Shown: positions 30,149-43,114 of the stretch, one piece after another
Layout: every line of letters begins with the position of its first letter
How positions within the stretch are numbered: the first letter of the stretch is position 1
Assembly (NCBI GenBank): GCA_963666835.2
Contig: CAXXGO010000001.1
Coordinates: 1,280,001 to 1,344,000, forward strand
Length of the DNA stretch: 64,000 nucleotides
DNA from: Phycisphaerae bacterium
GTDB taxonomy: Bacteria; Planctomycetota; Phycisphaerae; UBA1845
Reading direction: 5' to 3'
Notes under the pieces: generated by a model
Database searches by the model: none
What the model saw: the letters and a program-made list of their open reading frames with translations, nothing else
What the model was told of the DNA's origin: nothing
Program-made: the position numbers and the translations under genes

Positions 30149-30526
30149 GCGGCACTGCAAACGGGTGGCGTATCGCTTTAGCGGCGGGGGACTCCGCAAT
30201 ACGCCGAAGGCCGGGTGGCCCATGGCTTTGGCCGTGGCGGACTGGCTGGCCGGCCGGCACATCTTCTTGGCGGAGGGGAACTCCTCAATACGCCGAAGAT
30301 AGTGACATATGTCCACCGCGACCGTGTGGCGATCACCGGGGGCTTTGCCCCCAGACCCCCAAGGTTTGTCGCTTGGGAGCCAGAACAGGCCAGGGAGAGC
30401 GAGAGCCCGCCGTGCATGCAGACTCCCGCGCCTGTCCCGGCACTGGTACGAGCGCTCGGGGTGCTCCTCAGCAGAGCCCTGTCCTCTCGACCAGCACACA
30501 CAAGTCTGACGTGCTGTGCCATCGAG

Positions 30527-31300
30527 TCAAGCATGCTGGCCCTCCAACTCATGATCGATCTCCAGGTACTCCTGAACCAGGAAGATGCTGCAACCTAAAG
30601 CATGGGCTGTCTCCTTTGCCGTCAGCCCCTGAAGATGGCAGTGGCGGACGCGATCGTACTGGCCCAGGTAACGATCCACAGCCTCAAGGCTGTGGTACGT
30701 TTCCCGAGCCACTTCGTTAGCCGCTTTGCCTTCTGCGTAATGTTTGAAACAGATGATCCGTTTGTGCGTAAGCCCTGTGCCGACATCGTGGACAGTAGCG
30801 CGACGTGGGACGATCTGACCGGTCTCGCGTTCGTACGCCGCCAACAATCGCGAGACGTCCGACGCATTGACTGCTAACAACTCCGAGAGATCAGAGTTGG
30901 ACAGAACGCCCCCTTGTTCGTACGCCTGTCGGCATAACCTCAAGCTCTTTTGTAAGAGCAACTCTCCACGTCCCTTCTTCTGCAAACGCATCTCGATATC
31001 CTCGAAGGTACTCACGTCCAAGACCACCGGAAGCAGATCGGTATCCTCAATCCGTCGACGCTGACTCGGGGGATCTGCGCTGCTGATCGCCATCCAGAGT
31101 ATCTGACCATGTTGGATATGCTCCTTCGGGAGAACGTGGGCACCGATGACCTCAAGGATCATCTCTGCGCACAGGTTGCGAATCCGTGGGCCGCCTATGC
31201 GTGGAAACTCCGTTTCGATGCGGTGAGCCAACACGTTTCTCAGCGTTTTCGCCTGCAGGGGACTGTATCTTCTGCTGTTGGTGTCTCGCGGCTTACCCAT
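30527..31300 (-). CDS. DUF1670-like protein B
   Basis: QAYEQGGVLSNSDL, PRRATVHDVGTGLTHK, HSLEAVDRY; family recognised from memory of motifs. Confidence 0.8.
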   Translation of the reverse strand: MGKPRDTNSRRYSPLQAKTLRNVLAHRIETEFPRIGGPRIRNLCAEMILEVIGAHVLPKEHIQHGQILWMAISSADPPSQRRRIEDTDLLPVVLDVSTFEDIEMRLQKKGRGELLLQKSLRLCRQAYEQGGVLSNSDLSELLAVNASDVSRLLAAYERETGQIVPRRATVHDVGTGLTHKRIICFKHYAEGKAANEVARETYHSLEAVDRYLGQYDRVRHCHLQGLTAKETAHALGCSIFLVQEYLEIDHELEGQHA

Positions 31301-32144
31301 CGGATCTTCCCTCTTCACCGAGCTCCTTTTTCCCCCCGCCACAACAACCCAGGCGCATCAGTTCTTCCAGGTGATAGCCCATGTTCTTGTCGACCGCGCA
31401 TTCGTCGAGGAGATCAAGGTACTGTTGTACCAACCGCTTGCCTCTCCGCAGAAGGAAGGCGATTTGCCCGACCTGCATACCTTTCTTTGCCAACTGCGCA
31501 CAACGGGTGAATGTCGAGACGTAGTTCGCTACAGCCGCCGGTGAATGGCGAAGCATGGTGCAGATCTGTGAGGTCGTCTTTCCCTCCAGAGCCAAACGCA
31601 CGATTTGGCTGCGATGAGTCAACACGGGACCAAGATCGTGTACGATTCCTCGCAGAGGAATAAGCACCCCGGGATACGCACTCCGGAGAGCGTTCAAATC
31701 GCGCGTAATGGTTCGTGGCGTAACAAAGAACATCCGGTAGGCCAGATCTTCGCGCGTGAGCAGCCCACCTTGACTCAGGGCTTCTTGGCAAAGCGGTGGG
31801 ATGCGGGCTTGTCGAAAGCCGACCGGCCCCTCCTCCTCCAGAAGTCGATCATCCTCTGCACCTCGGTGGATTGTCAGGCACACGTTCTGCTTCTGGCATT
31901 CGCAGACGGGTTTCCCGGCAGGCTCGTCGGCGTCGACGACGACCAAGCCAATCTTGCCAGGTGGGGCCTTGCCGGCGTGTTCATCGAGGTACGGGAAGTA
32001 AACTTCCTTGACCACATCGAGAACCGCCTCGGCCTCGAATGGCGAACAATGGAGTCCGTGCTTGATTTCGTGCAAAAACTTGGCATCCAGTGTCTTCGAG
32101 TCAAGACGCTCAAGCCTCTCCTTCTTCTTGTTCCGCAGCCCCAT
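31293..32144 (-). CDS. DUF1670-like protein A
   Basis: EPAGKP, EALSQGGLLTREDL, RTITRDL, PLRGIVHDLG, HSPAAVANY. Confidence 0.8.
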   Translation of the reverse strand: MGLRNKKKERLERLDSKTLDAKFLHEIKHGLHCSPFEAEAVLDVVKEVYFPYLDEHAGKAPPGKIGLVVVDADEPAGKPVCECQKQNVCLTIHRGAEDDRLLEEEGPVGFRQARIPPLCQEALSQGGLLTREDLAYRMFFVTPRTITRDLNALRSAYPGVLIPLRGIVHDLGPVLTHRSQIVRLALEGKTTSQICTMLRHSPAAVANYVSTFTRCAQLAKKGMQVGQIAFLLRRGKRLVQQYLDLLDECAVDKNMGYHLEELMRLGCCGGGKKELGEEGRSDG

Positions 32145-32211
32145 GCGTAGTCCTCCCAAGTCCCGAAGTCCGTTACCAAGGTACCCGGGTGGACATATGT
32201 CAGGAAGGTAG

Positions 32212-32535
32212 GCGTTACGTCCCGCAGCCCAGGGTTGCCGCGGAGCGGCCACCCTGGAGTGACGGTCACATCAAAGACCAACCCTGACGGGGTTGCGACA
32301 CTGTTCAACCCACTTCGAGGTTGGTCTGGGAAGGGGCTTTGTGACTCAGGGTGGCACTGCGTGGCTGCGCCGCTTCGTTTACCCTGGGCCTTGTTGTGAA
32401 ACACCTTTGGCGTATGTTCGGAAAAGGTGAACCGTCCCGAAGGGACGTGGGCATGCAGCCACGGGTGGAACGCAGCGGAACCCGTGGGCGAGGTTTGTCT
32501 CCCAAGGCCGCCCGTCCCGGCGGGCCGGCGGACTG
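32212..32535. repeat. REP cluster including an unoccupied target-type REP
   Basis: 32283-32423 matches the joined flanks of element copy 2; 32440-32533 recurs at 37578-37669. Confidence 0.85.
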
Positions 32536-32725
32536 ATGATGCCCTTCGGCGTCGAATGTAGCCGAGAATTCTCGATGTTGCACCGGAGGCGGGATTCACC
32601 TAATCGGGTGACAACACGTTATTCCCCGGAGCTTCGTAGAGCTCGGGGAATGAGACGTTCCACAATGGCGCCCGCCGCGTGACGACCTGGATTCAACCTT
32701 CCAAGAATATTCTCGAAGAAAAGGC

Positions 32726-32760
32726 TTGACTGCAATGTTAGGGGGGGGGGGGGGTACCAT
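32726..32760 (+). promoter_or_regulatory. possible sigma70 promoter with a G14 tract in the spacer
   Basis: TTGACT-gcaatgtta-G14-TACCAT in an AT-richer patch. Confidence 0.35.
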
Positions 32761-32819
32761 ACAAGAGTTCAAAGGTCGTCGGTAAAAGACAAAACAGATT
32801 CTGTGGTTCGATAGAGCGC

Positions 32820-33245
32820 GGTCGAGCCGCGTGGTGCGTCGCTTCAGTGGTTGGGTGCCGCATCGCTTTGGCGGTGGGAGACCCGACAGCACCTTGAGCG
32901 CCCGGCCGCGATCAGTACGGCGAGCGTGAGCGACCCGCCCGATGTGATGGTAGCGCAGGGCCGGCTCCCTGACGGTTGCGGTACTGACATGCGGGGCCAC
33001 GTCTTGCCGGGTCGCCCGGCGCTTCAGCGGCCGGAGACACGAACTGACACGGAGGCGGCACTGGCAAGCAACTCGACAGTGGATTGAGTGGCCTGCCGCG
33101 GTCAGTACGGTGAGCATAAGCGATCCGCTCTGGGCGCGTGGTGCGTCGGGCCGGCTCCCTGACGGTCGCGGTACTGAATGGTGCCTGCGGGCGCTGTGAC
33201 GGTTGTAGTCTCGTAGGGCACGGTCGAGGCACGAGACCTGCCGGA
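32820..33245. repeat. REP-like mosaic
   Basis: GGGCCGGCTCCCTGACGGTYGCGGTACTGA twice (about 32958 and 33148); GCCGCGRTCAGTACGG twice; REP at 33213. Confidence 0.75.
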
Positions 33246-33380
33246 AGAGCGGTTTGCGCAGGCCTGAGCCCCGAAAGCACCGGTCAAGCGCTCGGCGTGC
33301 GCGCAAAATCGGCAAGGATGTAACACCTGTCCACGTGGACAAGGTAGATCGTTTTTCATATCTTGGATAGGAGAAGTCAC

Positions 33381-34439
33381 ATGGTAGCGACTGAGACGAA
33401 GATCGTGGCCGCATGTTGCAGTGTTTTGATGATGCTCCCGTCATGGGCATGGGCGCAGCTCTACGCCCCACCGGACGCGACGGTTGACCTTCCGGTGCAG
33501 GTCGTACAGAGCGCCCAGAATCGCACGCCCGAGGAGATACGAGCGTGGGCGTTTACGGACGAGTATGTTCTGCAGTACCTAGTCAGCAACGCGTATTCGA
33601 TCGGCACGTTCGAGGCGATGTGGCCCGCAGGTGATCCGGACATTCACGCGATGATCGTTGAGCCGCCGGACTACCCGGGACAGATTGTGTTGATCGACTC
33701 GACGGTGGACCCCGAGGAGGCGGAGGAACTACCGGTGGTAGATACTGGCACGTTCACCGAGTTTGCCCGCTACGCAGCTGACAATGTCGCCGTGGGTGTC
33801 AGCTTCGTAGCAGGGACTTTTAGCCGGTCGGGCAGTGAACTGGTTGTTGTGGGACTCGAATTGGCGGTGGTCGTCGAGGACGCGGACCTACCGGAGCCCA
33901 TTGTAGTGAGGACGTTTCGGTCATTGGATGTCATTCCTGATGAAGACTTGGCGCACGCGACGGCTTATCGCTACGCTGTACTGAGCGCGAACCACTCGTC
34001 GGGGAGCGGTGGAAAGGACGCACTCGTTCAACGCACGCACCCCGCTATGATGGCTGAGCCGGAAGGCAACAACACGCCGGCACGCGACAACTGCGGGTGT
34101 TTCATGACGCTTCGGCACAGTCTCCAGGAAGCGCAGGATGAACGAAACAGGGATATCGCCAGTCTTCTGGGCACATATACGGGCTTAATCATAGGGGCCG
34201 TTGCTGCTTGCTTGGCGTTCCATTTCTTCGCAGCCACATGCGTTGGGCTCACTGTCGGCTCGCTTTTGACTGTGGCCTCGATCGAGTTTGAGATGATAGA
34301 CACTGCGTATGTGCACACATGCGATAGGCATCGGGATCTTTACGACGCGTGTTGCGACAGGACGGGTTGTGTTTGCCCAGGGTTGCCATGTTTTGGACAG
34401 GGCGATAGAATCCCGGAGGGCGCACTGATTGCAGACTGA
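33381..34439 (+). CDS. secreted protein with Cys-rich hydrophobic C-terminus
   Basis: AGGAGA RBS, signal peptide AWA-Q, C-terminal hydrophobic hairpin bracketed by Cys. Confidence 0.75.
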   Translation: MVATETKIVAACCSVLMMLPSWAWAQLYAPPDATVDLPVQVVQSAQNRTPEEIRAWAFTDEYVLQYLVSNAYSIGTFEAMWPAGDPDIHAMIVEPPDYPGQIVLIDSTVDPEEAEELPVVDTGTFTEFARYAADNVAVGVSFVAGTFSRSGSELVVVGLELAVVVEDADLPEPIVVRTFRSLDVIPDEDLAHATAYRYAVLSANHSSGSGGKDALVQRTHPAMMAEPEGNNTPARDNCGCFMTLRHSLQEAQDERNRDIASLLGTYTGLIIGAVAACLAFHFFAATCVGLTVGSLLTVASIEFEMIDTAYVHTCDRHRDLYDACCDRTGCVCPGLPCFGQGDRIPEGALIAD

Positions 34440-34440
34440 T

Positions 34441-35385
34441 ATGTCAACATCGAAGGGTCCGAGTACTCGCCGCAGGCGGTCGCGGATCGCGACGTTTTTC
34501 GTTAACGTGGTCACTCAGGGCGCCGGGCTGCCTTGGGCGGTCCTCAGAATGCACGTGCTTCGCGATTACTTGGGGATAGTGTGTTTGTTTGTTCTTGGAT
34601 TCGGAAGCTTGGTCTTTGCGGCAAGCTCGGCATGGCCGAGAGGGTCTGCGGCTCTCTATCTGGGAACGGTCGTTTATGGGGGATTCGCTGCGTTGGGATT
34701 GCGCCGCTCCTGCATTGAGGTTCAGCTGAAGCGAGAGGTCGCAAGCATGGGAAACGCTGCTTGCCTTGAGTGCGGGCGTCGGCTTATTGAGAGAAACGGC
34801 CAATGTCCGGCGTGCGGATGGGAATACGAAGATGTCGGCGAAGTAACCAAGTTCTGGGCTGAATGGGAGCCGTGTGCTGGTCTGTTGTACAGGATATCCG
34901 GGGGGCGCAGAGCGGATTGCATGCAGCCCGGCCGAGTGAAACCGGCTCTTTTGACCAGGCTCCGCATGCGTTTCGAGGTGCTCTTCATTGTTTGCGGTGT
35001 GATGATTGGGGGCGTTGTTTTGGTGTACGGTCGCTGTCTGCAAGGCGCAGCGTCGTTATCGGCGTTGTTGTGGCCTTACCTTGTCGCCGTGTTCGCCTTG
35101 GTTGTCGTGCTTAGTCTCGGTTGCCGGTTCGCAGAACGGCGCCTCAAACGTGACGTGGTCGGTAAGGACAACGCAGCCTGCTTCGAGTGCGGGTACTGGC
35201 TCACCGAGCCGACCGGCCGTTGCCCGGAGTGTGGTTGGGCGTACGAGAGTCTTGAAGATGTTGTGCGGTTTTGGAGCGAATGGCAGCCGTTCCGGCGCTT
35301 TCCGCGGCTACGGAAGCAGAAGGCGGTGGAGGCCGAAGGTTCGGGTGATCCTGGCTCTTCGAAGGAGGTGTCAGCGCCCGAGTGA
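34441..35385 (+). CDS. membrane protein with two (2TM + zinc ribbon) modules
   Basis: CLECG..CPACGW and CFECGY..CPECGW. Confidence 0.75.
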   Translation: MSTSKGPSTRRRRSRIATFFVNVVTQGAGLPWAVLRMHVLRDYLGIVCLFVLGFGSLVFAASSAWPRGSAALYLGTVVYGGFAALGLRRSCIEVQLKREVASMGNAACLECGRRLIERNGQCPACGWEYEDVGEVTKFWAEWEPCAGLLYRISGGRRADCMQPGRVKPALLTRLRMRFEVLFIVCGVMIGGVVLVYGRCLQGAASLSALLWPYLVAVFALVVVLSLGCRFAERRLKRDVVGKDNAACFECGYWLTEPTGRCPECGWAYESLEDVVRFWSEWQPFRRFPRLRKQKAVEAEGSGDPGSSKEVSAPE

Positions 35386-35626
35386 CACGAGCCGGACATA
35401 TTGGGTGCCCGCGGGGCGCCCCGTTTCTCACATGGCATGGGGCGGGGCGCCCGCGCGGTTGCACCGGGTTTCGTTCTCTGAACCAGCGGTACGACGCGTA
35501 AGGGGTGGACCGGCCCTTCCTCACAGGCTGCCTCAGGTTATCGGATCTGGAATTGCAGCGCAGCTCGCAGAAAATCGTAGCCGGATATTGGGCATGCTGC
35601 AATATCTACAAATGTTGTGATGAGCC

Positions 35627-36619
35627 ATGTTGGTGATGAGCCACTGTGAGATGCTTCCTGGCATTGTCGTCAGAATAGGTCGCCGTTTCGGGCTCTTGGG
35701 GTTGGCCTCGATGGCCGCGCCGTTCCTCGTTGTCTTCTGGGCGGGCTGGTACGTTGATTTTTCTGTGGGAGGGGCAACGCGTCCATTTGGGCTCTTTGTG
35801 GGCTGTGCCATTGTTTGTGTCATCGCATTCGCCGCTATGGTGTCAGTGTGGCAAATGCGGGTCGAGACGCGGCTACATTGCGACGTGGCGAGCAAGGGCT
35901 TTGCCGTGTGCTTTGAGTGCGGGCATCGGCTCGCCGGGAGCGGCGGGCATTGTCCCAAATGTGACTGGGAGTATGACGATATCGAGCAGGTTGTCAGTTG
36001 CTGGGCAAACTGGAAGCCGTCCGAGTATCTGTTTCGCAGGACGAGCGTAGAGGGTACGGACGCGCCGGTTGCCGTTGCGGGGGCGCGAAGCGCCGATGGG
36101 TCGATTATCGACTGCAACGGACCCGGTGTAGTAACGAGCGGTCGCGTGCTGCAGAAACTCGGTAGCCCGCTGATTCTGAACAGGATTCTGAACCGCCACG
36201 ACGCGCTCGGCCTGATAGCGTTTCTCTCAGTCGTCGGCGTCTATATGGTGCATGTCTGGAACGTGCCGGGCTCAGGTACGCCTTCATTAAGCAGGATGTT
36301 CGGTTATATTGCGGCCGGATTGGGCACCACCGTTCTATGCAAGGTGTTTCGCTTGTTCGCGGAGCAGCGGCTGAAACGCGATGTGGCCGGTAAGAACAAC
36401 GCTGCGTGCTTCGGATGCGGCTACTGGCTCACGGAGCCGAGTGGGCGGTGTCCGGAGTGTGGTTGGGCGTACGAGAGTCTTGAAGAGGTCAGAGGGTCCT
36501 GGACGGAGTGGCAACCGTGTTGGTACTTTCTCAGCCGAAGGAACAGGAGGCGGCAAGGCGCCGGCGATACGCTGGACCAAGACGGCGCGGATTCGGCGGC
36601 AACGGCCGATCAGCGCTGA
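35627..36619 (+). CDS. paralogous membrane protein with two (2TM + zinc ribbon) modules
   Basis: CFECGH..CPKCDW and CFGCGY..CPECGW; start uncertain. Confidence 0.72.
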   Translation: MLVMSHCEMLPGIVVRIGRRFGLLGLASMAAPFLVVFWAGWYVDFSVGGATRPFGLFVGCAIVCVIAFAAMVSVWQMRVETRLHCDVASKGFAVCFECGHRLAGSGGHCPKCDWEYDDIEQVVSCWANWKPSEYLFRRTSVEGTDAPVAVAGARSADGSIIDCNGPGVVTSGRVLQKLGSPLILNRILNRHDALGLIAFLSVVGVYMVHVWNVPGSGTPSLSRMFGYIAAGLGTTVLCKVFRLFAEQRLKRDVAGKNNAACFGCGYWLTEPSGRCPECGWAYESLEEVRGSWTEWQPCWYFLSRRNRRRQGAGDTLDQDGADSAATADQR

Positions 36620-36622
36620 CCG

Positions 36623-37315
36623 GTGCAGGCTACCGGCCGACAGCTTGTAACGGGACTATGCGTCGTGGACTCTACTGGTCATGCCGAATCACAGCTTCTT
36701 GCGGATGAATTGGTGTGCGCGGAGTGCGGATACGACCTGCGCGGGCTTCCCGGCGATCCGGTGCAGTGTTCGGAATGTGGCAGGACATGCCCGATCCGGG
36801 AACTGCGCGTGAACGCCGCCGAGATTCAGAAGGAGCTACGCAGGCTGGAGACCTTGCCGACAGCCTGCGTGGCCTCCTTTCTGGTGATGATCTTGGCGCT
36901 CGGTTGGGCTTGGTGGACGGGACGATCGGCATTCGGCGTACCGGTGGTTGTCGCTCTTGCGGGGTATTGGCTGCTGTTGGTACACAGATTCGCGGCGGTT
37001 ATTGAATGGGAGGTCGGATGGATACGGGTGTTGCTCTTGTTCCATATTACCGGGTTGGTTGGCGCGGTCTTGCTTGGGACGATCTGGTTCGCCGGTGTTA
37101 TACTGTTGATCCACTGCACCGGCGGGCCGTCATTCTGTGACGCGGCGATTCACCTGATTGTCATGGCCATGGCTGTTTCGGTCGCGGGACTGTTCACGGT
37201 GGTTCGACTGCTGAACCGAAGAGCTCGGATCGCGCAAAGGAAGCTGCAACACCGTCTGGCCATCCGACTCGCCCAGCTCAACCGAGGGGCCAATCGTCCT
37301 TTGATTAACATTTGA
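36623..37315 (+). CDS. zinc-ribbon multi-TM protein
   Basis: CAECGYDLRGL..CSECG, then about 4 TM helices. Confidence 0.7.
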   Translation: MQATGRQLVTGLCVVDSTGHAESQLLADELVCAECGYDLRGLPGDPVQCSECGRTCPIRELRVNAAEIQKELRRLETLPTACVASFLVMILALGWAWWTGRSAFGVPVVVALAGYWLLLVHRFAAVIEWEVGWIRVLLLFHITGLVGAVLLGTIWFAGVILLIHCTGGPSFCDAAIHLIVMAMAVSVAGLFTVVRLLNRRARIAQRKLQHRLAIRLAQLNRGANRPLINI

Positions 37316-37379
37316 TGCGGCTAAAGTCAGTCCTGCAGCGTTTGGTCTCCTGCCTCGGCTGTGCCGCACAAAGCTGTCA

Positions 37380-37920
37380 ACAGGGTGGCATGGGCCAACT
37401 TGTTGGCTTGTGGGATCGCGCCACGCGTTCCCGGGGGTGAACCGCGGTCGCAACTTGGCGACAGGTCTTGTGCCTCGATCGTGCCCGACACCCGTGGACG
37501 CTGCGCTACAAAGGGGCCGTCGTAATCAGTACGGCAAGCGCGAGCGACTCGCCCTTGGTCGATATGCAGTCCCTTTAGGGACGTGGGCATGTAGCCACGG
37601 GTGGAGCGTAGCGGAACCCGTGGGCGAGGTTTGCCTCCCAAGCCCGCCCGTCCCGAAGGGCTGGCGGACGGTTACCGCGAATCACGCGAAGATCTGGCGG
37701 AATAGCGAAGTGTCGGCAATACGGCACTATCGACCCAGGGGCAAGCTGAAAGCGTCCATGCCGAAGCGCGTAATCTGGCGGTGTGCGGCGGAATGGCTTG
37801 CGCGCGAGCTACGCTATGCCCATGCCACGCGCCATGGCAGGTCTCGTTCCTCGACCGTGCCCTACGAGGGACCGACGCAAGCTCCGAACGGGTGGCCCGT
37901 GGCTTTAGCCGTGGGGGACG
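37380..37920. repeat. REP-like mosaic
   Basis: Modules shared with about 32440, 29021, 39124 and 45170. Confidence 0.7.
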
Positions 37921-37948
37921 CCCTCCGAGGGACTGAGGGGAGCCCGGG

Positions 37949-38896
37949 TCATCCGAAGCTGGCTGCTATTATGACGATGTAGATGCCGATGAATGGCGGG
38001 ACGACGAAGATCAGAGCTGCGAGCGTGAGCCAGAGCAGGGGCACGGACACGGCAATCAACGTCGCCCGCCTCCTGACGCGCGGCATAGCTCTTTGGGCAG
38101 TTCGCACGAGGTTCACCCACCAGGTGAACGCCACCATCCCGGCTGACAGGATGATCATCAGCCACCGGAGTTCCCAGATCTCCGCGCATGTCCAACGCCA
38201 GGATGTTCCATAGTATGGTTTGTACAACAGAACGGTGGTCGACAGCATCATGAGGACCAGGATTGCGAATGCCGCCAGCGGGCCGCAAGCGTAGTAGCTC
38301 AGCGTGCTTGCGGCGTTCTGCCGGGCAAGTGGCACGTTCCGGGGCCGGAAAAAGTCGCTGGGCACCCCGGTGGCGGCGATCAGAAAGAACAGCATGAGAG
38401 CCAGCCCAATCGCCAGCGGCCAGCCGGCTGTACAGGCATAGTCCCACAACAACGGCGGTATGGGGCCGCGATGGATCAGCTCGCGAAGCGGATCTCCCAC
38501 GACCTTCGGAGCCCGGGCGATGGCGGAGGTAACCACGACCGCCGTCACCGGCACGAAGACGTGCGCAATCGTGACCCATCGGAAGCTCTGAGCGTCTGCG
38601 CGGCTGACCGGGCGAATGCACTCCTCGCTGAAGCGCTGGTTCCGGAATGTCACCATCCAGACCGTGCGCCAGTAGCTCTTGAGGAGCCCGCGCTCTCGGC
38701 GGTGGACCCAAGGTATCCCCGACTCTGTCGACCGTAGGTTTTCCAGGGAGTGGCCGCACTCGGGGCAGCGGTTGCTGACGACCCCGCGCAGGTCATAGGT
38801 GCATTCCGAGCAGTAGACTCCAGGCTCAATTGCCGGCAGAGCGTTGGGTTGCTCATTGTCCGGTGCGTCGTTAGCGATAACAGATTCGTCTGCCAT
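37949..38896 (-). CDS. zinc-ribbon multi-TM protein
   Basis: CSECTYDLRG..CPECG, IPW, about 5 TM helices. Confidence 0.75.
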   Translation of the reverse strand: MADESVIANDAPDNEQPNALPAIEPGVYCSECTYDLRGVVSNRCPECGHSLENLRSTESGIPWVHRRERGLLKSYWRTVWMVTFRNQRFSEECIRPVSRADAQSFRWVTIAHVFVPVTAVVVTSAIARAPKVVGDPLRELIHRGPIPPLLWDYACTAGWPLAIGLALMLFFLIAATGVPSDFFRPRNVPLARQNAASTLSYYACGPLAAFAILVLMMLSTTVLLYKPYYGTSWRWTCAEIWELRWLMIILSAGMVAFTWWVNLVRTAQRAMPRVRRRATLIAVSVPLLWLTLAALIFVVPPFIGIYIVIIAASFG

Positions 38897-39034
38897 GCCG
38901 GGGGTGTCCTGTCATGCACGGATTCTGCGGTTCGTGGAGCGAACCGCACCCCATCCGAAGAACCGACCACCCTCATCATGGCAGGCTCCGGGGGTAAGGT
39001 CAAGATACGCCGTGCTGGTCGGCATGGCCGATGC

Positions 39035-39274
39035 GAGGTTGCGGCAGGTCTCGTGCCTCGACCATGCCCTACGTAGCTGCACTGCTCAAGAGTAGTGGCA
39101 CACCCGAGAACCCAGGTGTGGACGGGTGGCCCATGGCTTTAGCCGTGGGGGACCTGACGGGGTTGCGACGCTGTTCGACCCACTTCGGGGTTGGTCTGGG
39201 AAGGGGCTTTGTGACCCAGGGTGGCACTGCGCGGCTGCGCCGCTTCGTTTACCCTGGGCTTTGTTGTGAAACGC
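39035..39274. repeat. REP mosaic ending in the occupied target REP
   Basis: 39153-39274 near-identical to 32283-32404. Confidence 0.85.
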
Positions 39275-39341
39275 CTACCTTCCTGACATATGTCCACCCG
39301 GGTACCTTGGTAACGGACTTCGGGACTTGGGAGGACTACGC

Positions 39342-40193
39342 ATGGGGCTGCGGAACAAGAAGAAGGAGAGGCTTGAGCGTCTTGACTCGAAGACACTGGA
39401 TGCCAAGTTTTTGCACGAAATCAAGCACGGACTCCATTGTTCGCCATTCGAGGCCGAGGCGGTTCTCGATGTGGTCAAGGAAGTTTACTTCCCGTACCTC
39501 GATGAACACGCCGGCAAGGCCCCACCTGGCAAGATTGGCTTGGTCGTCGTCGACGCCGACGAGCCTGCCGGGAAACCCGTCTGCGAATGCCAGAAGCAGA
39601 ACGTGTGCCTGACAATCCACCGAGGTGCAGAGGATGATCGACTTCTGGAGGAGGAGGGGCCGGTCGGCTTTCGACAAGCCCGCATCCCACCGCTTTGCCA
39701 AGAAGCCCTGAGTCAAGGTGGGCTGCTCACGCGCGAAGATCTGGCCTACCGGATGTTCTTTGTTACGCCACGAACCATTACGCGCGATTTGAACGCTCTC
39801 CGGAGTGCGTATCCCGGGGTGCTTATTCCTCTGCGAGGAATCGTACACGATCTTGGTCCCGTGTTGACTCATCGCAGCCAAATCGTGCGTTTGGCTCTGG
39901 AGGGAAAGACGACCTCACAGATCTGCACCATGCTTCGCCATTCACCGGCGGCTGTAGCGAACTACGTCTCGACATTCACCCGTTGTGCGCAGTTGGCAAA
40001 GAAAGGTATGCAGGTCGGGCAAATCGCCTTCCTTCTGCGGAGAGGCAAGCGGTTGGTACAACAGTACCTTGATCTCCTCGACGAATGCGCGGTCGACAAG
40101 AACATGGGCTATCACCTGGAAGAACTGATGCGCCTGGGTTGTTGTGGCGGGGGGAAAAAGGAGCTCGGTGAAGAGGGAAGATCCGATGGGTAA
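39342..40193 (+). CDS. DUF1670-like protein A
   Basis: GGAGGA RBS; identical translation to 31293-32144. Confidence 0.8.
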   Translation: MGLRNKKKERLERLDSKTLDAKFLHEIKHGLHCSPFEAEAVLDVVKEVYFPYLDEHAGKAPPGKIGLVVVDADEPAGKPVCECQKQNVCLTIHRGAEDDRLLEEEGPVGFRQARIPPLCQEALSQGGLLTREDLAYRMFFVTPRTITRDLNALRSAYPGVLIPLRGIVHDLGPVLTHRSQIVRLALEGKTTSQICTMLRHSPAAVANYVSTFTRCAQLAKKGMQVGQIAFLLRRGKRLVQQYLDLLDECAVDKNMGYHLEELMRLGCCGGGKKELGEEGRSDG

Positions 40194-40959
40194 GCCGCGA
40201 GACACCAACAGCAGAAGATACAGTCCCCTGCAGGCGAAAACGCTGAGAAACGTGTTGGCTCACCGCATCGAAACGGAGTTTCCACGCATAGGCGGCCCAC
40301 GGATTCGCAACCTGTGCGCAGAGATGATCCTTGAGGTCATCGGTGCCCACGTTCTCCCGAAGGAGCATATCCAACATGGTCAGATACTCTGGATGGCGAT
40401 CAGCAGCGCAGATCCCCCGAGTCAGCGTCGACGGATTGAGGATACCGATCTGCTTCCGGTGGTCTTGGACGTGAGTACCTTCGAGGATATCGAGATGCGT
40501 TTGCAGAAGAAGGGACGTGGAGAGTTGCTCTTACAAAAGAGCTTGAGGTTATGCCGACAGGCGTACGAACAAGGGGGCGTTCTGTCCAACTCTGATCTCT
40601 CGGAGTTGTTAGCAGTCAATGCGTCGGACGTCTCGCGATTGTTGGCGGCGTACGAACGCGAGACCGGTCAGATCGTCCCACGTCGCGCTACTGTCCACGA
40701 TGTCGGCACAGGGCTTACGCACAAACGGATCATCTGTTTCAAACATTACGCAGAAGGCAAAGCGGCTAACGAAGTGGCTCGGGAAACGTACCACAGCCTT
40801 GAGGCTGTGGATCGTTACCTGGGCCAGTACGATCGCGTCCGCCACTGCCATCTTCAGGGGCTGACGGCAAAGGAGACAGCCCATGCTTTAGGTTGCAGCA
40901 TCTTCCTGGTTCAGGAGTACCTGGAGATCGATCATGAGTTGGAGGGCCAGCATGCTTGA
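40186..40959 (+). CDS. DUF1670-like protein B
   Basis: GAGGGA RBS, overlaps gene A by 8 nt; identical translation to 30527-31300. Confidence 0.8.
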   Translation: MGKPRDTNSRRYSPLQAKTLRNVLAHRIETEFPRIGGPRIRNLCAEMILEVIGAHVLPKEHIQHGQILWMAISSADPPSQRRRIEDTDLLPVVLDVSTFEDIEMRLQKKGRGELLLQKSLRLCRQAYEQGGVLSNSDLSELLAVNASDVSRLLAAYERETGQIVPRRATVHDVGTGLTHKRIICFKHYAEGKAANEVARETYHSLEAVDRYLGQYDRVRHCHLQGLTAKETAHALGCSIFLVQEYLEIDHELEGQHA

Positions 40960-41168
40960 CTCGATGGCACAGCACGTCAGACTTGTGTGTGCTGGTCGAG
41001 AGGACAGGGCTCTGCTGAGGAGCACCCCGAGCGCTCGTACCAGTGCCGGGACAGGCGCGGGAGTCTGCATGCACGGCGGGCTCTCGCTCTCCCTGGCCTG
41101 TTCTGGCTCCCAAGCGACAAACCTTGGGGGTCTGGGGGCAAAGCCCCCGGTGATCGCCACACGGTCGC
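40960..41168 (+). ncRNA. candidate structured RNA in the element's 3' non-coding region (mirror copy 30318-30526)
   Basis: Series of hairpins that need G-U pairs on the sense strand; expression unknown. Confidence 0.4.
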
Positions 41169-41290
41169 GGTGGACATATGTCACTATCTTCGGCGTATGT
41201 TCGGAAGATGTACGTCGCACGAAGACCAGCGGCAGGTCTCGTTCCTCGACCATGCCCTACGAGGGGAAGCAGAAGCGCGCTTGCGAGCGG

Positions 41291-43114
41291 TTAGCTCTTC
41301 TTGCGGGTCGCGCGGCGGCGGTCGAGTTCTTTGAGCACGCGCTTGCGCAGGCGGATGGCGTCGGGGGTGACTTCCACGGCCTCGTCGTCGGCGATGAACT
41401 CCAAGGCCATCTCCAGCGGCATCTCGCGGGGGGGGCGGAGGACGACCGTTTTGTCGGCCGCGGCCGCCCGGATGTTGGTCATCTTCTTCGCCCGGCAGAT
41501 GTTCACTTCGAGATCGTTGTCGCGGCAATGCTCTCCGACTATCTGGCCTTCATAGACCTGGGTCCCCGGGCCGACGAAGAACTCGCCGCGGTCGGCCAGG
41601 TTGTTTATGGCGTATCCCGTTACCTGTCCCGGTTCGTTGGCCACGAGGACTCCGTTCTGCCGACCGGGAATGTCGCCGCGGAAGAACTCGTACTCATAGA
41701 AGTTGTGGTGCATGATGGCCGTGCCGTTGGTGGCGTTGAGCATGCGGTTGCGCAACCCAATCAACCCACGTGCCGGGATGGTGAACTCGATCAAGGTCGA
41801 GTCGCCGCGCGATTCCATGGTCTTGCAGATGCCGCGCCGCCCGCCCATTAACTCCATAACAGTTCCGACATGTTGTGACGGCACATCGATTACGCAGAGC
41901 TCGATCGGTTCGGTTTTCTTGCCCGCCAGTTCGCGATAGATGACCTTCGGTTTGCCCACGGCCAGCTCATATCCCTCGCGCCGCATGTTCTCAATCAACA
42001 CGGACAAGTGCAGCATCCCCCGACCGGATACGTGCATCTCCTCGGGAGTGTGTCCCGGCTCGACCCGCAGAGCGACGTTGCTCTGCATTTCCTTTTCCAG
42101 GCGATCGCGCAGGTGGCGCGACGTGAGGAACTTGCCGGACCGCCCCGTAAACGGAGAGTCGTTTACGCGGAAGGTCATGTGGAGCGTCGGTTCGTCGATA
42201 CGGATGATCGGGAGTGGTTCGGGGTTATCAGCGCAGGCGATGGTGTTGCCGATGTCGACCGTCTGCAGCCCGACGACCGCGCAGATGTCACCGGCCGGGA
42301 CCTCTTCGACCCTTGCTCGTCCCAACCCATCGAAGGTGAACAGCTCTCCGATACGTTCCTTGTGTTGCGTGCCGTCCCGGTGGATCAAGGTCACGTCACT
42401 ACCGGCCCGGATTGAACCGGCGAAGACGCGACCGATACCGATTCGACCGACGTAGTCGTTGTAGTCGAGCGTCGTGACGAGCATTTGCAGCGGGGCGTCG
42501 GGTTTGACGTCGGGGGGCGGGACATGTTCGAGAATCACGTCGAACAGAGCGAAGATGTTGTCCGGGCGTTCGTTTGCGTTCATTGCCGCGAAACCGAGTG
42601 TGGCCGACGTGTAAACGGTGACGAATTCAAGGGCGTCATCATCGGCGCTCAGCTCGATGAACAGATCGAGCACCTCGTCGAGCACGCTGTCAGGTCGGGC
42701 GTCGGGGCGATCGATTTTGTTGATTACTACGATCGGTCGGAGATGGTTCTCGAAGGCCTTGCGCAGGACGAATCTCGTTTGCGGCATCGGTCCTTCGAAC
42801 GCATCCACCAGCAGCAGGCAGCCGTCGGCCATTTTCAGGACCCGCTCAACCTCACCGCCGAAATCAGCGTGGCCTGGGGTGTCGACGAGGTTGATCTTCG
42901 TGCCGCGGTAATTGATTGCGATGTTCTTGGACAGGATTGTGATGCCGCGTTCGCGCTCGATATCGTTGGAGTCGAGGATCCGCTCGCCCGAGACCTGGGC
43001 CGCTCGAAACTGGCCGCACTGGCGGAGCATCTGATCGACCAGGGTGGTCTTTCCGTGGTCGACGTGGGCGATGATGGCGATGTTACGAATAGCGGTGTTC
43101 TTCAAGAGCGGCAC
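41291..43114 (-). CDS. typA: translational GTPase TypA/BipA
   Basis: [41 protein letters not shown]. Confidence 0.97.

Follow-up and report, generated by a model that had tools for sequence, protein, structure and literature searches.

A mobile element with two DUF1670 proteins, a structured RNA and no recognisable transposase, inserted at hairpin loops in a Phycisphaerae genome

To our knowledge, all catalogued families of prokaryotic insertion sequences (IS) use DDE, DEDD, HUH, serine or tyrosine recombinases. Two members of the IS3 family, IS1397 and ISKpn1, insert in loops of enterobacterial repetitive extragenic palindromic (REP) or bacterial interspersed mosaic element (BIME) palindromes by means of a DDE enzyme and make target duplications. 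Here, we describe a 1.9-kb element in a 64,000-nucleotide stretch (hereafter the window) of the genome of a Phycisphaerae bacterium (Planctomycetota; assembly GCA_963666835.2, contig CAXXGO010000001.1, positions 1,280,001–1,344,000). The element encodes two related proteins of the Pfam family DUF1670 (A and B) and a small structured RNA (R1), and is clearly active and widespread, with none of the above enzyme types recognisable in it. Comparable layouts are described in the IS110 family. Elements of its IS1111 group have subterminal repeats that lie 7 bp from one end and 3 bp from the other, carry an RNA downstream of their genes and insert in one orientation without duplication, and cargo placed between the IS ends moves when enzyme and RNA act in trans (PMC11187229). 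ISPpu9, an IS110-family element found in REP sequences of Pseudomonas putida, has a small-RNA gene, Ssr9, downstream of its transposase gene; Ssr9 is reported to be a separable module that is not required for transposition (PMC12288879).

Aligning window positions 39175-41289 (+) with the reverse complement of 30197-32311 showed that 39270-41198 is the exact reverse complement of 30288-32216 over 1,929 bp (no mismatches, no gaps), with flanks that are partly alike beyond the identical run. An earlier note on this DNA had described an apparently identical, inverted unit of 1,915 bp present twice; the unit at 39275-41189 lies inside this run and its two copies match perfectly. The extra shared bases belong to the target (hairpin arms ACGCC and TTCGGCGTA) and not to the element. 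In its smallest reading, copy 1 occupies 39276-41188 (+; TACC...TATC, TACCTTCC...CACTATC, 1,913 bp), and the junction letters 39275 (C) and 41189 (T) are assignable to either element or target. Copy 2 aligns as an identical, inverted unit at 30298-32210 (-), with ORF A (open reading frame A) at 31293-32144, ORF B at 30527-31300 and the RNA at 30362-30499, all on the minus strand.

Six full-length copies, each with its own flanks, lie on three contigs (C1, C6 and C7) of the source genome (6.02 Mb, 7 contigs, 92% complete). Differences number 0-4: three copies are identical, a fourth departs at 3 positions and the remaining two at 4 (888, 889, 891 and 1283). All 12 DUF1670 matches of the genome fall inside these copies, and the element was found in 0/20 relatives of the source genome. 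Because six near-identical copies lie at separate sites, empty sites of the same repeat exist and the relatives lack it, we conclude that this is a real, recently active mobile element of 1.9 kb. The recent independent insertions claimed in the earlier note are thus borne out, and further copies and empty alleles, which it had suggested seeking, both exist in the source genome. Its general traits are those of an insertion sequence, namely small size, several copies with defined ends, no genes but its own, unoccupied sites and derivatives reduced to the ends. In contigs of two independent studies, the unit occurs at ~4-8x the word depth of the unique flanks, although this figure is rough. Plasmid and phage collections gave 0 matches. 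No replication-strand rule was visible against local GC skew among these few copies (four plus a remnant in one orientation vs. two in the other, with uniformly positive skew).

Unoccupied repeats of the same family (the palindrome pattern has 68 strand-wise matches) were set against the six flanks to fix the insertion point. An empty site in the same genome reads AACGCCTTCGGCGTA, and the occupied site reads AACGC[C]TACCTTCCT-GACATATGTC-CACC...GGTG-GACATATGTC-ACTAT[C]TTCGGCGTA. For copy 1, the left side of the target (39215-39275, +) comprises a REP-like palindrome (39215-39258) and the 5' arm ACGCC (39271-39275), and the right side (41189-41197, +) comprises the loop TTC and the 3' arm GGCGT(A). 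The element is inserted between the 5' arm and the 3-nt loop of this small hairpin, which lies 12-15 bp (about 12) downstream of the palindrome, and all six copies share the same position and orientation within the REP-like unit. Of the earlier note's sharp ends and different flanks, the former hold with an ambiguity of 1-2 bp per junction (C in locus L028, CT elsewhere), and the latter only in part, since the same REP-like unit flanks every copy in the same way. With so short an ambiguity, there is no real target duplication.

Similar junctions were seen beyond the source genome. At 20 of 25 distinct insertion sites from several genomes, the flanks form a stem of at least 5 bp with the element at the 5' edge of the loop, which is 3 nt long (4 nt at one site); the other five sites are one contig end, two imperfect stems and two of other kinds. 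The sequences themselves vary (ACGCC/TTC, GCCCC/TTC, TCC, TAC, GAA; ACGTCCC/TAC; GGCCGCC/GT; a loop GTG is also listed), and because stems and loops both differ, the target looks structural and not like a fixed sequence. Divergence among the flanking REP copies is far greater than in the element, and therefore REP and element have not moved as one unit. A joint running from 39274 to 41188 was rejected as an empty allele; present in one contig, with 3 other letters on its left part, it is another unoccupied REP copy. The composite REP-like repeat itself occurs at window positions 39155-39275 and at ~34 loci genome-wide, as the palindrome CCAGGGTAGCCGCTGCGCGGCAACCCTGG followed by the ACGCC-TTC-GGCGT hairpin and often by an additional CCCCGAAG-type hairpin.

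Both ends of the element carry the palindrome GACATATGTC (the core), each within a 15-bp inverted repeat: TGACATATGTCCACC on the left (39284-39298, +; core at 39285-39294) and GGTGGACATATGTCA on the right (41169-41183, +; core at 41173-41182). Between core and terminus there are 9 nt on the left and 6 nt on the right. By our own arithmetic from base composition, ~3 cores would be expected in the genome; there are 15, of which 12 are in the six copies and 3 in remnants, with none elsewhere, and no other element of the genome has the same ends or core. The first remnant is a 25-bp solo (left end-core-right end) within a hairpin loop (C6:739722). The second is a perfect 40-bp palindrome (C5:242190-242229, core site C5:242205) in which two right junctions share one core; the assembly lacks the reciprocal product, in which two elements would stand head to head. 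The third is a 41-bp right-end fragment (C6:1881239). An Acidobacteriota genome contains two further 25-bp solos in hairpin loops. All five of these odd sites have element-end sequence at the core, and four of them (the three solos and the double right junction) have their junctions exactly at the palindrome, the fifth being the 41-bp fragment with its core. Such junctions suggest breakage and rejoining of DNA at the core as well, in the manner of a symmetric recombination site. The direct repeats of 10-15 bp might have produced the solos through slippage, which does not account for the double right junction.

The left core is close to the start of the genes. A -10-like TACCTT (39303-39308, +) and a ribosome-binding site GGGAGGA (39329-39335, +) precede ORF A, and a TAnnnT box is found 7-11 nt past the core in 11 of 12 related elements; a consensus promoter scan did not call a promoter for ORF A. 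The placement of the left core in the promoter spacer, between a weak -35 and the TAnnnT -10-like box, suggests autoregulation.

ORF A (283 aa) lies at 39342-40193 (+) and ORF B (257 aa) at 40186-40959 (+), so that the start of B overlaps the stop of A by 8 nt (ATGGGTAA). Both match PF07900/DUF1670 well above the gathering cut-off of 25 bits (A: E 1.9e-37, 129.2 bits; B: E 1.9e-49, 168.5 bits), and they are full-length paralogues with 26% identity over 250 aa (E 3e-16); the earlier note had already read them as paralogous. An hhalign comparison of A and B alignments was uninformative, one A2 row carrying an A-derived N-terminal extension. In layout, A has a helical N-terminal part with a beta-hairpin, a winged helix-turn-helix (HTH) and an HTH_23-like HTH. 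The ratio of nonsynonymous to synonymous substitution rates (dN/dS), from pairs with unsaturated dS, was 0.11-0.15 (A) and 0.13-0.20 (B). Purifying selection acts on both genes, which would be unexpected if they were irrelevant to the spread of the element.

No transposase, recombinase or nuclease signal was obtained for A or B in Pfam, NCBIfam, PDB sequence or fold searches, in agreement with the earlier note's reading that DDE, DEDD, HUH and serine-recombinase signatures are missing; nor was there a tyrosine-recombinase signal. The Pfam scan (E<=1) returned only DUF1670 and HTH families, the HTH units matching HTH_23, HTH_28 and HTH_29. The sole NCBIfam match was to the HTH/N-terminus of an IS630 model (12.7 bits vs. 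a cut-off of 100), and no described family among the NCBIfam IS models was matched by either protein. For the DEDD type, there was no PF01548/PF02371 match in Pfam (E<=1) and no IS110 match in NCBIfam; for the HUH type, no PF01797 (Y1_Tnp) match in Pfam. DDE domains gave no match in Pfam or NCBIfam and none among the fold-search rows, which cover B residues 108-257 only. Serine recombinases (PF00239) were not matched in Pfam, and a Tn3 resolvase row arose only via its HTH (Z 5.2, residues 174-253). Tyrosine recombinases had no Pfam or PDB profile match, and no integrase appeared among the 50 best fold rows. The PDB profile search gave 4 weak rows (best E 0.022) with no nuclease or recombinase, the Protein Atlas gave DUF1670 clusters only, and PADLOC gave only a WYL-type HTH (E 0.0058).

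The AlphaFold model of B (predicted local distance difference test, pLDDT, 82; predicted template modelling score, pTM, 0.69) consists of helices and a single beta-hairpin (residues 66-73 and 89-95). Foldseek found 0 matches to this model in PDB at E<=0.001, with Pax paired-domain folds among the weak rows, and a wider structural search returned only winged-helix, sigma-region-4 and DeoR-type rows (Z<=6.4), all within residues 108-257. The N-terminal ~105 residues comprise helices and the beta-hairpin; the N-terminus of A modelled alone (pLDDT 59, pTM 0.33) was too poor for a fold search. Residues common to A and B occupy linker and recognition-helix positions of transposase-type HTH units. 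Invariant in both paralogues are, in B numbering, R167, D172, H179, H203, Y211 and, in the N-terminal part, H64 and D101. A predicted A+B complex (score 0.22, mark 0.32) says nothing either way.

The DUF1670 family spans many bacterial phyla and archaea (Methanosarcina acetivorans as control). A first protein search gave 1,453 homologues of B at E<=1e-3, and a profile of A gave 2,574 clusters at 50% identity. The best 120 homologues of B lie nearly all on contigs of 1-4 kb, as expected because repeats break assemblies, and the best homologues are named only 'DUF1670', 'hypothetical' or 'CsgD family regulator'. Among species-representative genomes, 55 loci were found by scanning, in Planctomycetota, Acidobacteriota, Nitrospiraceae, Verrucomicrobiota, Chloroflexota-type bins, Lentisphaerota and others, and the occurrence of PF07900 is patchy (3 of 201 genomes in the phylum sample). 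An A-type frame directly abuts B upstream in nearly all of 35 loci, including subfamilies at 32-44% identity. Fusions of A and B are known from locus L029 and several database proteins; longer homologues are either such fusions or triple-DUF1670 proteins, and none of the longer relatives has a known nuclease or recombinase domain. Proteins P0124, P0147, P0148, P0152 and P0161 are ~930-950 aa long with three DUF1670 units per chain. A partial GGDEF tail is present in P0219 and P0264, and a Zn_ribbon_DnaG (DnaG-type zinc-ribbon) tail in P0122; these tails are probably read-through into flanking genes.

Element boundaries accompany DUF1670 pairs elsewhere, distant pairs included, a point that the earlier note had proposed to survey. 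The core-to-core span of the 12 full elements tabulated is ~1.70-1.94 kb. Four copies with 97-99.9% identity are present in the Acidobacteriota genome, and one Planctomycetota genome has two intact copies plus one interrupted by other insertions. Across Planctomycetota, Acidobacteriota and others, the left end reads (C)TACCTTCYN-GACATATGTC-YSACCGG and the right end CCGGTSR-GACATATGTC-NNNATC, while the distant subfamilies (32-44% identity) have their own terminal inverted repeats of 18-22 bp around GCCATATGGC-like cores. A core search of five related genomes found 7-14 sites in each vs. 0-1 for a reversed control. Miniature derivatives of ~120 bp (119 bp end to end) are repeated in three Planctomycetota genomes (L129, L133, L134; also L119, L121, L123, L132, L135, L125), keeping both ends together with degenerate inverted copies of the end motifs.

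The 3' region, which the earlier note had described as non-coding, is not merely a spacer. The tails of 23 related elements align as a nearly invariant block with variable stems, for which RNAalifold gave 27 pairs, 20 of them with compensatory changes. Pairing was possible in 95.5% of cells vs. 38-42% when partners were slid by 1-3 columns, pairs changing on both sides numbered 20 vs. 3-8 in the slid controls, and the observed covariation was reached by 0 of 500 shuffles. Since G.U pairs recur (in 17/23 and 10/23 sequences at two positions), the RNA strand is the gene strand. From this alignment evidence, we conclude that the region encodes a covarying structured RNA. In copy 1, the covariance model R1 matches 40987-41124 (+) with 130.9 bits. 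In the fold, a P1 stem encloses an internal loop with the invariant AGGAYAGGGC...CCCGAGCGC and a hairpin, and the 3' part has a 12-bp stem with G.U pairs followed by single-stranded AAGCGAYAAACCT. Upstream is a promoter-like TTGAC, N17 and -10 position (40956-40981, +), of which TTGAC overlaps the stop of B; the arrangement TTGAC-N17-nAnnAT precedes the RNA in most relatives, although the -10 is poor in copy 1 (AGACTT). Past the RNA lies a terminator-like GC hairpin without a T run (GGGGGC-AAA-GCCCCC, 41134-41148, +).

R1 was detected in all six copies (130.9 bits) and in the tails of 24 of the 55 related loci. It is absent from a short-tail subfamily of four copies and two solos (0 matches in the Acidobacteriota genome) and was not found in the distant subfamilies, and Rfam gave no match for R1 and nothing relevant on the element. 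Relatives of R1 (69.6 bits) are also carried by the only IS110-family element of the source genome, which has five copies of ~1.83 kb with ends GTAATCGCATGAAAGGC... and ...GCCTTTCATGGATAGGGTCCG (R1 at C1:1128995-1129162, C6:1566933-1567100, C6:1729121-1729288, C6:2674270-2674437 and C7:71326-71493; L083-L087). There, R1 is full length and lies in the 3' non-coding part on the strand opposite to the transposase gene, ~120 bp from the right end, and the same layout recurs in a 2.2-kb IS110-type repeat of another genome (L147-L149). R1-like RNAs (79-93 bits) also occur at single loci beside rve-type (L150, L151) and ISL3-type (L152) transposase genes.

A guide role for R1 was considered and is not supported. 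R1 has no match of at least 6 nt to the target or end junction in the source genome, and the longest match between an RNA and its own target averages 6.1 nt vs. 6.4 nt for mismatched element-target pairs, so there is no excess of matches; this test is crude, as split guides of 4-5 nt would escape it. The sole long match inside the IS110 element falls within its coding region. Because these searches for guide-like matches found nothing, we read R1 as an accessory, IS-borne RNA module and not a guide, by analogy with Ssr9 of ISPpu9. A 'solo' R1 at C6:796200 was rejected as an independent RNA gene, being the tail of a decayed DUF1670 element. This second element of the source genome (tail at C6:796140-796410; L137 1440-1710) retains a good TTGACA-N17-ATCATC promoter, R1 with 131.7 bits and the core variant GACAATTGTC, and its right outer end is the exact inverse of the left-end motif (AAGAAGGTAG).

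Taken together, two related DNA-binding proteins and a small folded RNA are all that the element was found to carry, and no DNA-cutting enzyme was recognisable; it therefore probably moves by machinery that has not yet been described. The evidence leaves the same two readings as the earlier note, a new recombinase class or movement in trans. We give about an even chance to an autonomous insertion sequence of an undescribed family (as judged against Pfam and NCBIfam IS models) that moves with the DUF1670 pair as its transposition proteins. In favour of this we count the mobility and self-contained layout of the unit, its conserved ends, its activity in other genomes, the derivatives reduced to the ends, the selection on both genes, the A-B fusions, the lack of another element with the same ends and the junctions at the core. 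Under this reading, A and B, probably as a heterodimer, would bind the CATATG-centred palindrome of each subterminal inverted repeat, pair both ends, and either perform or directly arrange the cutting and joining of DNA at 9 nt (left) and 6 nt (right) beyond the cores. That the two proteins would act together is suggested by the existence of A-B fusions. Joining would take place in a GC-rich REP-type hairpin, at the 5' edge of its 3-nt loop; the element would always face the same way, and no fixed duplication of the target would arise. By occupying the left core, in the A-B promoter spacer, the proteins could also autoregulate, and the 3' RNA would be an accessory module and not a guide. More tentatively, and at somewhat below even chance, the pair may itself be a new class of transposase or site-specific recombinase, built of HTH units and a small N-terminal domain, that recognises a CATATG-centred palindrome at each end and joins the element to the edge of a hairpin loop; DUF1670 would then be a class widespread in bacteria and archaea that was overlooked since nothing in it resembles a known enzyme.

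Several observations weigh against an autonomous element. B residues 108-257 form three HTH-type units (best Z 6.4), and the residues common to A and B (P-x-R...D-x-G...T-H-R/K, H-S...Y) are at HTH and linker positions typical of DNA binding; neither protein shows any catalytic fold or motif, the rows of the fold search covering B residues 108-257. No circle junction or excision joint was listed in public runs, where assembled contigs only were covered, and no RNA dataset was listed as holding the sequence. The architecture is also of the IS1111 type, which works with a DEDD enzyme and an RNA, in its unequal subterminal repeats, 3' RNA, lack of duplication and REP targets. It is possible, though rather unlikely, that the element is non-autonomous and is cut out and inserted by an unlinked DEDD recombinase of the IS110/IS1111 type, with A and B as accessory proteins for end binding, regulation or recruitment. 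This main rival draws on the IS1111-like anatomy of unequal subterminal repeats, RNA downstream of the genes and oriented insertion without duplication, on a possible CT junction dinucleotide, and on R1 in the non-coding region of IS110-family elements of two genomes. It also draws on IS110-family transposase genes being present in 43 of 46 DUF1670-bearing genomes (37/40, 5/5 and the source genome) vs. 71 of 201 in the phylum sample. However, the control family ISL3 was enriched as well (23/40 vs. 39/201, with a stricter E-value and compared genome sets that differ in phyla), so that part of the IS110 enrichment reflects general IS richness, and three DUF1670-bearing genomes, though metagenome bins, have no IS110 match. 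The ends and core occur on no other element of the source genome, which speaks against the unlinked transposase with the same ends that the earlier note had allowed for. The one IS110-family element of the genome has unrelated ends and targets, R1 opposite to its transposase gene and its only long match in coding sequence. The RNA without excess matches, the short-tail subfamily without R1 and the strong purifying selection on both proteins also speak against movement by such an enzyme.

An improbable alternative is that A and B only mark and pair the ends while a near-universal host enzyme (for instance a Xer-type recombinase, a topoisomerase, or a nuclease specific for structures such as hairpins or cruciforms) performs the chemistry. 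It would be consistent with proteins that resemble pure DNA binders, with a target that is a DNA structure and not a sequence, and with a family spanning many bacterial phyla and archaea, for which the partner would need to be universal. Nonetheless, the ends show no dif-like site when read against the dif consensus, and we know of no precedent for insertion by a host enzyme into many dispersed hairpins, a lack that also counts against this explanation. Very unlikely, in our view, is R1 as the active or guiding part (a ribozyme or guide) with A and B as its protein partners. Its strong covariation, the strand set by G.U pairs, the conserved promoter-like site upstream and its presence in many related tails favour a functional RNA at the centre; its absence from the multi-copy short-tail subfamily and the distant subfamilies, its lack of complementarity to target or donor, its occurrence in IS110-family elements and beside rve and ISL3 transposase genes, and the lack of an Rfam family do not. 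That the duplication is an assembly artefact, or a duplicated regulatory operon that does not move, is hardly credible: the absence of a transposase, and nothing more, speaks for it, and against it stand six copies on three contigs with distinct flanks, which contradict the artefact considered in the earlier note, as well as empty sites, a multi-copy unit in unrelated genomes and the raised word depth (a rough figure) in two independent studies. For readings outside those given here, we leave a small margin of probability. The autonomous insertion sequence with A and B as its transposition proteins is the reading that we favour.

Turning to the surroundings of the two copies in the window, the 7 kb that separate them (32212-39274) contain a same-strand ORF run (33363-37979) in REP-rich DNA, with ORFs of 358, 318, 330, 230 and 190 aa. 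None of these, nor an overlapping 204-aa frame at 35006-35617 that was also scanned, had a Pfam match at E<=1e-5. The inverted copies and the intervening DNA look like a composite-transposon-like arrangement. Directly to the right of copy 1 is a typA/bipA GTPase gene (41294-43114, -), the sole part of this neighbourhood that is kept in relatives (15/20, 66-76% DNA identity). Elsewhere in the source genome, an ISL3-family transposase gene is present in four copies (C3:198439, C6:1317858, C5:137786 and C1:367422), and there are 9 Y1_Tnp matches.

Our literature search found no paper naming DUF1670, and searches with IS terms returned only known families. The earlier note had not seen the hairpin loop as target, the palindromic core within the subterminal repeats, the derivatives (miniature and solo) or the conserved RNA of the 3' region. 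New here are a structural hairpin-loop target across phyla, remnants centred on the core, the miniature derivatives, a quantified covariation of the tail RNA, R1 in IS110-family elements and a first co-occurrence test. If A and B do the chemistry, they would be a new DNA-rearranging enzyme with a structure-specific target, the edge of a hairpin loop, of interest for mobile-DNA biology and as a tool. If they are not catalytic, the element would parasitise IS110-type or host enzymes in a new way, and DUF1670 would be placed in a functional context for the first time. In both cases, the thousands of members of a Pfam 'domain of unknown function' become annotatable as IS-borne, and annotators could mask DUF1670 elements, which break metagenome assemblies.

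When compared with known systems, the element shares single traits with several of them. Like IS200/IS605 and the REP-associated Y1 transposases (RAYT), it deals with hairpin DNA, but A and B have no HUH/Y1 domain and its ends are double-strand-type inverted repeats around a 10-bp palindrome and not subterminal hairpins. Like IS1397 and ISKpn1, it has the loop of a repeated extragenic palindrome as its target, whereas those are DDE elements with target duplications. The HTH units of A and B resemble the DNA-binding domains of IS630/Tc1-mariner and IS3 OrfA-type proteins, although no DDE domain was matched, and there is no TA target or TA duplication as in IS630/Tc1-mariner. ISPpu9 with Ssr9 is the best analogy for R1, a likeness in layout, and it differs in having a DEDD transposase. 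With the IS1111 group of the IS110 family (ISEc11, ISPa11; seekRNA/bridge-RNA), the element shares subterminal repeats that are spaced unequally from the two ends (here 9 and 6 nt, counted from the core), a structured RNA within a sizeable non-coding stretch 3' of the genes, precise insertion in one orientation with no target duplication and a preference for REP-type palindromes; the related RNA R1 also occurs in IS110-family elements of the same genomes. It differs from IS1111 in having no DEDD/RuvC-like transposase or Transposase_20 domain, in an RNA that has no detectable target or end match and is dispensable in one active subfamily, and in repeats that hold a protein-type palindromic site kept across phyla.

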